The position numbers and the translations under genes were made by a program. Positions 9,199 to 10,383 of a stretch of 32,000 nucleotides of DNA are shown here, one piece after another (positions within the stretch are counted from its first letter, which is position 1; each line of letters begins with the position of its first letter). Origin of the DNA: Candidatus Saccharimonadota bacterium. Lineage in GTDB: Bacteria > Patescibacteriota > Gracilibacteria > BD1-5 > UBA6164. The DNA lies in assembly GCA_004563595.2 (NCBI GenBank), contig CP042461.1, forward strand, positions 870,001-902,000. The letters are read 5' to 3'. The notes under the pieces were generated by a model, which had not been told where the DNA came from, did not search any database, and saw only the letters and a program-made list of their open reading frames with translations.

Positions 9199-10383
9199 TT
9201 AAATTATTTCTTTCAATATATAATCCATTACAAGTACTCATTTATCCTCTAATTTTATAACTGAATTTTCTTCTTTTAAATATCAGTCTTTTATAAATAA
9301 ATTTATTTTATTTGTATCTAACTGTGAATATAAACTTTGTTCTATCCCAGAAGTCCTGAGCTGAAACATAATTTTTTCTAAAAAGAGGTCTTCTGAGTTA
9401 CTTAATTCTTGCACTTTCTTTTCTCTCTTGTAATACTCATTAAAACTATCACTATTTCTATACCTTACTCAATTTGTATATCAATATGCTCATAATCAAA
9501 AAGCAACTATTTGTGAATGGTTCCAATATGCCTGATTATGCTTGCATTCGTATCATGGTTGAGAAAAATTTGATATTTCATAACTATGAAATCACCTAGA
9601 TTTTAAAAATTTTTTTATTTCTCTATATTCAGCTAAGTAATCTTCATCCTTTATCCCAAGTTTATTCCAATCATCTGGATACGTTACCTTATCATATTTT
9701 GTTTCTATTATTTTATCTTCATTGTAGTATTCTTCAAGCAAATATACCGAAATATGCTTTATAAATGAATATGCATCTAATATATACTCTATATCTTTTT
9801 TAATTTCTCATTTTTCTACATACGGGAGTCCGATAATAAAATCAAGAGAAATATTATCAATTCATCTCTCTTGTAGAAGATCTAAAGCCTGTATGATATC
9901 TCACTTATTCCCTCTTCATATTTCATCTAGACTTTTCGTACTCAGAGTTTGCACTCACATACTTATCCTATTTATTCATAATTTTTTCCAGTTTTGTAAA
10001 TTCTCTTTCGTCACGTTAATTGGTGTCGTTTCAAGTGTGATTTCAATATCAGGGTCAAAACAATATTTCGATTCCATTGTATCAAGAATCATTTTTATCT
10101 GAGATAGTTCCAAAACACTTGGGGTTCCTCATCAAAAATAAATACTTTTTAAATAACCTCACCCTTGAATTCCCTCTCCTACAGGAGAAGGAGGCACAAA
10201 AACTCATATCCCCCTCTCCTGTAAGAGAGGGGTTAGGGGTGAGGTTCTTACCTCATCTACCAATGAATGGACATATTTTGATATTTGAAATTTTTGAGTA
10301 GATCAGATAGATGCAAATCTACAATATCCGCACTTCTGGTCGCAAAAAGGAATATGAATATATGAATATAAATTTTTATTCAC
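9199..10383 (-). CDS. hemW: Radical SAM family heme chaperone HemW / HemN-like protein, 394 aa, carrying an in-frame palindromic insert
   Basis: GTG start (10383-10381; there is no in-frame ATG after the upstream TAG) to TAA (9201-9199), 1185 nt. Motifs present: YIHIPFCDQKCGYCRF (CxxxCxxC), YFGGGTPS, GINRISMGVQT and HNQAYW. Confidence 0.85.
10155..10246. repeat. GC-enriched palindromic element E1, about 92 nt, inside the hemW coding sequence
   Basis: Outer 10-bp inverted repeat aacctcaccc/gggtgaggtt. Inner hairpins ccctctcct-aca-ggagaagg and cccctctc-ctgtaa-gagagggg. GC content is visibly above the surrounding sequence. Confidence 0.7.

Follow-up and report, generated by a model that had tools for sequence, protein, structure and literature searches.

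Among the repeats described in bacteria, the BoxC elements of Escherichia coli, which are the same as PIT elements and as TM_ECO, have the consensus CCCTCNCCC N3-6 GGGNGAGGG N3 GGGNGAGGG and occur in 23 copies in MG1655, all of them intergenic, with five inverted pairs that always join a "type A" (TTA) to a "type B" unit (Holder et al. 2015, PMC4666352, where the earlier BoxC/PIT work of Bachellier, Hoyne and Maher is cited). TM motifs amount to 3610 copies across 262 proteobacterial genomes; the G-rich strand of TM_ECO forms a triplex in vitro, and no function or mobility mechanism is known (PMC4666352). The GTAG-REP superfamily of repetitive extragenic palindromes (REPs) is marked by an unpaired GTAG at one end of the palindrome, and intragenic single REPs and dimers encoding 20-30 amino acids have been reported in several phyla, Opitutus terrae and R. 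conorii being two examples (Di Nocera et al. 2013, PMC3733652). Rickettsia palindromic elements (RPEs) are in turn ~150 bp long and sit in frame in housekeeping genes (PMC10969869). Here we compare with these systems a GC-rich element of 92 nucleotides (nt) that lies within hemW, the gene for a heme chaperone, of a Candidatus Saccharimonadota bacterium of the Gracilibacteria, in a stretch of 32,000 nt (contig CP042461.1, positions 870,001 to 902,000) to which we refer as the window, and in which positions are counted from its first letter.

We find that the element is a known kind of selfish repeat in a new host and setting, its novelty lying in the lineage and the genetic code and not in the phenomenon. 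An earlier reading of this DNA from its letters alone (the sequence-only reading) had regarded such insertions as uncharacterized in lineages using genetic code 25. Our literature search likewise brought up no account of elements of this type in the Gracilibacteria or in other lineages with code 25; in-frame REP dimers are already known in several phyla (PMC3733652).

Results

A dimer of two inverted three-armed units lies in frame within hemW

The element occupies positions 10155 to 10246 on the minus strand and is translated in frame as TSPLTPLLQERGIGVFVPPSPVGEGIQGG (residues T47-G76 of HemW), between the CxxxCxxC and GGGTP motifs. Its GC content is 51%, compared with fractions of 0.27 for the rest of hemW and 0.28 for the window. 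When folded as RNA, a 112-nt stretch at the element reaches -61.4 kcal/mol (z = -7.7), and as DNA -27.7 kcal/mol (z = -6.2), with 0 of 200 shuffles as good in either case. The whole element folds into one long hairpin, and the chance expectation of its core motifs in the window is 0.00. Two of its codons are TGA (10206-10204 and 10161-10159), and in this orientation and frame the element is free of stops only with UGA recoded. The palindrome itself, its intact frame and its dependence on UGA as a sense codon thus agree with the sequence-only reading, which had also described it as one nested palindrome with an outer stem and two inner hairpins. The arms are indeed present, the outer ones being AACCTCACCC and GGGTGAGGTT and the inner hairpins CCCCTCTC-TTACAG-GAGAGGGG and CCTTCTCC-TGTA-GGAGAGGG, but they do not form a single palindrome: our analysis shows a dimer of two different, inverted REP-like units, each made of a hairpin and a mirror-repeat third arm, and what had been taken for an "outer stem" is nothing more than the pair of third arms, which chance to complement each other.

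The first unit, unit A (10211 to 10246, minus strand), is C-rich on the sense strand and consists of a third arm AACCTCACCCC at 10246-10236, a TAA spacer at 10235-10233 and a hairpin with arms CCCCTCTC (10232-10225) and GAGAGGGG (10218-10211) around the loop TTACAG (10224-10219); on the plus strand it therefore runs CCCCTCTC..GAGAGGGG-TTA-GGGGTGAGG, which is the BoxC/TM layout. It is followed by a 16-nt inter-unit spacer, GATATGAGTTTTTGTG (10195 to 10210, minus strand), which holds the first in-frame TGA (10206-10204, Gly60), and whose terminal four nucleotides (TGTG, 10198-10195) also belong to the second unit, where comparison with the TGTAGCCT of other copies identifies them as a degraded TGTAG family tag. 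In this second unit, unit B (10155 to 10198, minus strand), the third arm is G-rich on the sense strand: TGTG-CCT (10198-10192) precedes a hairpin of CCTTCTCC (10191-10184), loop TGTA (10183-10180) and GGAGAGGG (10179-10172), and on its outer side lie a spacer AATTCAA (10171-10165), the third arm GGGTGAGG (10164-10157), which contains the second in-frame TGA (10161-10159, Gly75), and a terminal TT (10156-10155). In both units the third arm repeats the hairpin's purine arm in mirror image and does not complement it, and both show the three blocks by which BoxC/PIT/TM motifs are recognized, namely a pyrimidine-rich arm, a complementary purine-rich arm and a mirrored purine-rich arm, in motifs whose arms measure about 8-9 nt and whose loops are short.

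No second copy was found in the window by sequence motif, and a structural finder recovered only the two units of this element. A search of the window against Rfam gave no match at the gathering thresholds, and relaxed E-values gave only generic miRNA-precursor hairpins far under the cut-offs. An assembly artefact was considered and ruled out, the sequence being 100% identical in the ENA assembly ERZ510998 and in the Logan assembly of SRR3580189. The element is a non-coding-type DNA repeat that now lies within a coding sequence.

The host gene spans positions 9199 to 10383 on the minus strand, from a GTG start (10383-10381), which shares 8 nt with the 3' end of the upstream gene, to a TAA stop (9201-9199), and encodes 394 amino acids under code 25. 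In a profile search its product scored 208.4 bits against TIGR00539 HemW (curated cut-off 205.4), and it carries the CxxxCxxC and GGGTP motifs. The gene contains 19 in-frame TGA codons, two of which encode Gly residues of GGGTP, so UGA is a sense codon for Gly (code 25); across the window, which has 28% GC, open reading frames (ORFs) of at least 200 amino acids cover 87% of the sequence with TGA as sense and 2% under the standard code. The hemW annotation in the source contig's public record begins at an internal Met and gives 253 amino acids; ~416 nt at window positions 10002-10383 (L203 9585-10001) go uncalled, and with them the first 141 residues, among which are the iron-sulfur (Fe-S) motif and the repeat. 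The gene caller was apparently misled by either the GC-rich insert or the GTG start.

Both units belong to dispersed families

On the plus strand, unit A reads CCCCTCTCC-TGTAA-GAGAGGGG-TTA-GGGGTGAGG and agrees with TM_ECO type A copies of E. coli at ~27 of 36 positions, with small gaps and a shifted arm register. It does not follow the literal TM_ECO consensus, and the shifted register makes it a sister variant and not a strict TM_ECO. A strict regular expression for unit A found five copies in related loci, which understates the family, and so we turned to a structure-based finder, which, run on 1.15 Mb of Gracilibacteria/Peribacteria loci, recovered 43 triplex-type units, compared with 0 when the sequence was shuffled. 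When viral contigs were scanned, the motif ACCTCACCCC-NNN-CCCCTCTC was located in more than 120 of them, with GC contents of 36-68%; among the matches listed, nearly all had a fitting GGAGAGGGG arm downstream, and they were mostly single units with a few inverted doublets. When the outer arms alone were used for the viral scan (AACCTCACCC N50-80 GGGTGAGGTT), four matches were obtained, of which three were due to chance and one, in L004, was a true doublet. A 22-mer of unit A is also present in the hemW genes of L192 and L201, and Rfam holds no family for this unit. These searches show unit A to be a variant of the BoxC/PIT motif, present in contigs of widely differing base composition. In one viral contig (L111, 10423-11790) we observed five tandem repeats of ~335 nt, each opening with an A-type unit and containing a second CCCCTCTCC hairpin, and the same 3' extension, AACTCA..CCGGCTTACTC, is common to L007, L023 and L076.

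A search of the related loci for the unit B spacer AATTCAAG found copies in L142, L152, L190 and L192, each with TGTAGCCT before it. Of the five copies located through the AATTCAAG side alone, four carry TGTAGCCT; the window copy has TGTG-CCT in its place. Metagenomes were then scanned with the pattern TGTAGCCTCYTTCY N10-20 GAATTCAAG; as the tag is part of this pattern, its matches are no evidence for the tag. At least 131 non-redundant copies of the unit B family (TGTAGCCT-hairpin-AATTCAA-third arm) were found in at least 119 metagenome loci, up to three per contig, which, together with the 43 units above, supports the view that hemW, a gene for a conserved enzyme, harbors a dispersed palindromic repeat. 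Among the matches listed, 59 of the 60 B-unit loci of at least 5 kb are UGA-recoded (long ORFs appear only with TGA as sense), and the mean GC content of the loci is 25%. The copy in L229 is nearly identical to unit B of the window, which has lost the A of the GTAG tag. Unit B is thereby shown to be one of many copies of a subfamily, probably GTAG-tagged, in AT-rich, UGA-recoded genomes of the Gracilibacteria type.

Inverted doublets other than the window element occur in L190, L142, L152, L163, L215, L251, L254 and L324. Full-length A+B doublets homologous to it were found in intergenic positions in L190, L142/L152 and L324/L325, and in L251 an A+B doublet has its B unit in frame within an ORF of 696 amino acids. 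Run SRR3580189, the source of the L325 doublet, also gave a contig with 100% identity to the window, and this doublet may therefore derive from the same genome. In L142 (11165-11320) and L152 (11170-11325) the doublet begins at the TAA stop of hemW itself, the stop lying inside the TAAC start of the repeat, and the spacer is longer and holds a third small hairpin. In loci sampled without bias, hemW and its immediate surroundings appear to hold more units than their share of the sequence predicts. At one intergenic site, orthologous in three genomes (L190 2690-2800, L142 2620-2730, L163 3225-3335) and recognizable by its conserved flanks (...GCTGAATA[GA] and TTTAATCTCTAATTATAATC), each genome has an inverted doublet, the arm sequences differing and the three-armed structure being kept, which could reflect either structure-preserving evolution or cassette replacement. 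Another dispersed GC-rich repeat, CCGGCTTTCAGCCA- or CCGCCTCCGGCA- followed by a CCTCCCYT hairpin and lacking a mirror third arm, was seen in L152 (2334 and 18818), L175 (468 and 16142), L186 (4862-5470) and, several times, in L168.

The third arm covaries with its own hairpin

The metagenome pattern for unit B left both the G arm and the third arm unspecified. In 110 of the 131 copies listed, the third arm and the G arm of the same unit are mirror images with at most one mismatch, compared with 45 when arms were swapped between copies. Of the mismatches in the third arm, 82 of 127 are a T opposite a duplex A, and the bases found opposite duplex A are A in 273 cases, T in 82, G in 9 and C in none. 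For arms that are not self-mirror, the mirror repeat fits better than the direct repeat in 71 copies and worse in 4, a preference that excludes an alternative Watson-Crick hairpin. In a survey of C-rich/G-rich hairpins in species-representative Gracilibacteria, in which no third arm was required for selection, an upstream mirror arm (at most one mismatch) accompanied 27% of hairpins, versus 6% when the arms of other hairpins were used, and 38 distinct arm sequences were represented. To judge from these base correspondences, the third arm is a constrained feature that obeys the rules of purine-motif triplexes.

Comparison with BoxC, GTAG-REP and RPE repeats

With BoxC/PIT/TM the units share the C-rich arm, the loop of 3-6 nt, the G-rich arm, the 3-nt spacer (TTA in type A) and the mirrored G-rich arm, and they are likewise multi-copy, dispersed and often arranged as inverted pairs of two unit types. 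They differ in arm register (CCCCTCTCC / GGAGAGGGG / GGGGTGAGG here, CCCTCNCCC / GGGNGAGGG / GGGNGAGGG in TM_ECO), in the 7-nt AATTCAA spacer and the GTAG tag of unit B, and in that copies often lie in frame within genes, whereas E. coli BoxC is always intergenic; furthermore, the third arms point outward in the window element and, by our reading of the Table 1 coordinates, inward in the E. coli pairs.

With GTAG-REPs they have in common short palindromic units, the T-GTAG-CCT of B units as an apparent tag, inverted dimers able to form one longer hairpin, a location mostly downstream of genes and a Y1_Tnp family in the lineage as a possible counterpart of the RAYTs. Unlike in GTAG-REPs, there is a mirror third arm with triplex rules, which lies outside the REP definition, the tag is degraded in the window copy, and the host, a code-25 member of the Candidate Phyla Radiation (CPR), falls outside the survey of Di Nocera et al.; the Y1 transposase genes examined also lack the flanking repeats of classical RAYTs. 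Like RPE-1 to RPE-10 (PMC10969869), finally, the element is an in-frame repeat found in unrelated housekeeping genes of a small AT-rich genome, to whose products it adds a presumably fold-compatible peptide, but it departs from RPEs in size, composition, unit architecture, phylum and genetic code. In-frame insertion at fold-compatible positions of housekeeping genes is a behavior shared with RPEs, and no evidence of membership in that family.

The insert is placed in a permissive loop of HemW

In the Gracilibacteria/Peribacteria loci, ~32 of the 43 units lie inside ORFs of at least 90 amino acids, in both orientations. Of the B units listed from metagenomes, 23 of 131 (~18%) lie deep within ORFs of 100 to 2335 amino acids, in all three frames and both orientations. 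In the window, the segment between CRFA and IYF measures 56 amino acids, as the sequence-only reading had counted, but its estimate of a 30-residue gain was too high, since the segment measures 33-35 amino acids in Gracilibacteria orthologues that are free of the insert, giving a net gain of 21-23. Relative to the closest orthologue, P0001, 96 nt replace 33 nt between common flanks.

Structural context was obtained from a model of P0003, a 58%-identical orthologue that carries a single unit at the same site and hence a shorter loop than the window doublet. The model is of high quality (predicted local distance difference test score, pLDDT, 90; predicted TM-score, pTM, 0.89), and its top match in the PDB is HemN (1olt, TM-score 0.77). 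Its repeat-encoded residues 42-54 form a coil with a local pLDDT of ~76, between a helix (23-43) and a strand (56-63), and alignments to HemN and NocN place the insert opposite a gap at the same point. On this model, the window insert is predicted to occupy the loop from helix alpha1 to strand beta2 of the HemW radical S-adenosylmethionine (SAM) barrel, in keeping with the expectation that it would lie on a loop. In TIM barrels, alpha-to-beta loops lie on the face opposite the C-terminal strand ends that form the catalytic side; by this topology, the alpha1-beta2 loop of HemW would lie opposite the Fe-S/SAM site. The length of the loop is also varied by unrelated inserts, which marks it as permissive.

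In other lineages, repeat units were found at three further positions of hemW, all of them between secondary-structure elements. A second hot spot is the alpha4-beta5 loop before NISxDFI in L191 (P0006), L175, L136 and L147, which carries repeat-derived inserts of up to ~40 amino acids, such as NNPSPFITFQGLPLTKEEIKDGKNRSLPFSKGVPEEGGGG, which seemingly stems from another GC-rich repeat type.

Orthologous hemW genes indicate turnover and not inheritance

Neither the closest orthologue (P0001, with an identity of 65-69%) nor 58 of 60 species representatives have the insert at the alpha1-beta2 loop; the source species is not among the GTDB representatives, the best match having 55% identity. At the same time, this very loop holds a short insert in about 13 of 119 orthologues, with a peptide like the first half of that of the window (TSPLTPLLKGEG, LTLTPLLQERG, HPLTPSLVRRG, LSPSPSPLGERG). 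At the DNA level these inserts are single A-type units in three arm variants, each of which keeps the mirror and complement relations, and the left junctions of the units agree within one codon across scattered lineages. The reading frame of the peptide shifts between copies (GEG vs ERG) while the DNA structure is kept.

In a neighbor-joining tree of HemW the carriers are scattered and have sister sequences without a unit, the deep nodes being poorly resolved, which leaves the number of independent events uncertain. Pairwise comparisons give a clearer picture. In L192 and L201 the unit is identical at 36 of 36 positions and the rest of the gene at 72%. L199 and L200 are 86% identical overall and share only 19 of 36 positions of the unit (variant c vs variant b), whereas L200 and the distant L196 share 33 of 36 at 65% overall. 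L134, from the same close clade as L199 and L200, has no unit. Homologous peptides in distant orthologues had been named by the sequence-only reading as a sign of ancestral protein sequence; many carriers are indeed only ~50% identical, yet the discordance of their DNA shows that the segment is not ancestral protein. The decoupling of unit identity from gene divergence instead makes the loop a site of recurrent acquisition or cassette replacement, and the pattern could stem from a preference for the site or, equally, from gene conversion among copies of the repeat.

Two side observations concern this loop. In the species-representative assembly of L134 a run of N falls exactly at the alpha1-beta2 loop of hemW and the flanking peptide KTGYPQEAPLQK is duplicated on both sides, which suggests an assembly problem or polymorphism at a hot spot. 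In L131 and a clade with EIKKS[SP][FL]KKGILNSIYF, some "empty" loops read AAA TCC TCT TTA AAA AAG GGG; these resemble an AT-eroded CCTCTCC-TTAAA-GGAGAGG hairpin, and the unit may once have been present in more lineages than counted.

A candidate transposase family is present in the lineage

Probing with sequences of an E. coli RAYT and of IS608 TnpA gave one weak match, later confirmed by Pfam. The corresponding PF01797 (Y1_Tnp) family comprises 19 clusters of proteins of 170-180 amino acids in this lineage, with an invariant HFH and a YVNxNP motif, and for one of them the annotation reads Gracilibacteria transposase. A B-unit contig bears one gene copy, and in L324/L325 a second is found 2.4 kb away from an A+B doublet. 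We located Y1_Tnp genes at L295 845-1396 and L324/L325 10001-10519, in UGA-recoded contigs. No transposase adjoins the window element, and no Y1_Tnp gene is present within the window.

Discussion

We consider it likely that the element in hemW is a REP-like dimer repeat that has come to lie within the gene and is tolerated in a loop of its product. In gene-dense genomes, a copy would survive inside a gene where the loop is permissive, the length keeps the frame and the frame is free of stops; in HemW the two TGA codons would be read as Gly and the longer loop accommodated, and because all motifs and the frame are intact the enzyme should stay functional. The repeat would then be a selfish or neutral passenger. 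Its spread would most plausibly proceed by single-strand mobilization in trans, for which the RAYT-like Y1 (HUH) transposase of the lineage is a candidate, and ectopic recombination or gene conversion between copies would probably add to it, which would explain how unit variants replace one another at the HemW loop. The share of B units inside ORFs lies far under ORF coverage and indicates that selection purges most in-gene insertions.

Several observations weigh against this explanation. The element is a single copy in the 32-kb window, and its degraded GTAG tag may render it immobile. No transposition event, target-site duplication or pair of empty and filled alleles was seen, the nearest empty site, that of P0001, being too diverged to define junctions. 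The Y1_Tnp genes examined have no flanking repeats; the gene is single-copy, stands amid ordinary genes and is bounded by terminator-like hairpins. The three family members closest to that of L295 have Phe at the expected Tyr of YVNxNP, and P0136 and P0125 retain the Tyr. B units are also under-represented in ORFs, with 18% against an ORF coverage of ~90% (a generous measure). Lastly, unit DNA is conserved above the synonymous-site background and recurs at the same HemW loop, and orthologous intergenic doublets differ in their arms yet preserve the structure, which a structure of benefit to the host would explain equally well.

It is from these last points that the main rival draws its strength. 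It holds that the host selects a structured nucleic acid (a DNA triplex or cruciform, or a stable mRNA hairpin), the peptide being a by-product; such a structure might slow the ribosome after the Fe-S-binding CxxxCxxC segment has emerged, attenuate or stabilize the transcript, or organize replication and recombination. The 36/36 identity of a unit in genes otherwise 72% identical, synonymous positions included, accords with this, as do the left junction that agrees within one codon in lineages scattered over the tree, the covariation of three arms that keeps a triplex-compatible form, the retention of doublets at orthologous intergenic sites despite differing arms, and the high stability of the RNA hairpin (-61 kcal/mol). 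However, the structure is absent at this loop from the closest orthologue and from 58 of 60 species representatives, and an 86%-identical clade holds variant c, variant b or no unit. Most units lie between genes, and those inside genes occupy many unrelated ones, in every frame and in either orientation; for the E. coli BoxC no promoter, terminator or expression effect was found (PMC4666352). The three further positions in hemW, all between secondary-structure elements, fit selection for tolerance and not for a position-specific function. This patchiness and turnover, the many host genes and the BoxC negatives argue against a role specific to hemW, and we regard host selection as an improbable account of the element.

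A vertically inherited, ancestral Pro/Gly-rich loop of 30 amino acids in which the palindrome is incidental would explain the related peptides at the same position in about 13 of 119 orthologues, but we find it very hard to sustain: the carriers are scattered and their sisters lack the segment, its nucleotide identity follows gene divergence neither in close nor in distant pairs, other genes as well as intergenic DNA and phage-like contigs contain the same DNA units, and the peptide frame changes (GEG vs ERG) over a constant DNA structure. Least credible of all is that an RPE family has spread to Gracilibacteria, a resemblance that the sequence-only reading had pointed out and that extends to behavior (an in-frame palindromic repeat in housekeeping genes that adds a loop peptide; PMC10969869) but not to membership, as the insert peptide has no NCBIfam match at E <= 10 (a peptide-level search of a library whose RPE models were unconfirmed), the 35-45 nt units with their hairpin and mirror third arm match the BoxC/TM and GTAG-REP types in layout and consensus where RPEs measure ~150 bp, and the B subfamily is nearly confined to UGA-recoded contigs.

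Beyond a REP-like repeat tolerated in a loop of HemW, two by-products deserve follow-up, namely the covariation of third arms by triplex rules in a large REP-like family and the turnover of cassettes at one protein loop. The B-unit family, with constant linkers and variable arms that covary mirror-wise, offers a clean comparative data set on the nature of BoxC/PIT. That nature has been an open question since the 1990s. From the comparison of arms we put forward, tentatively and as a rather doubtful proposal, that the three-armed layout could be an in vivo structure recognized by selection or by a mobilizing enzyme, and that the repeats could form a triplex-forming, REP-like class that colonizes protein loops of gene-dense CPR genomes, with one cassette replacing another at favored sites, of which the alpha1-beta2 loop of HemW would be one. 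If true, this would provide comparative evidence that in a bacterial repeat an intrastrand DNA triplex is a structure with a function, and would link the orphan BoxC/PIT motifs with RAYTs and REPs.

For annotation, GC-rich in-frame inserts of this kind run the risk of being taken for lineage-specific protein motifs. For the biology of these bacteria, our findings show that the phenomenon of RPEs and intragenic REPs also reaches into the Candidate Phyla Radiation and genetic code 25, in which UGA, being recoded, no longer stops one reading of the GGGTGAGG arm, so that more frames can tolerate the repeat.

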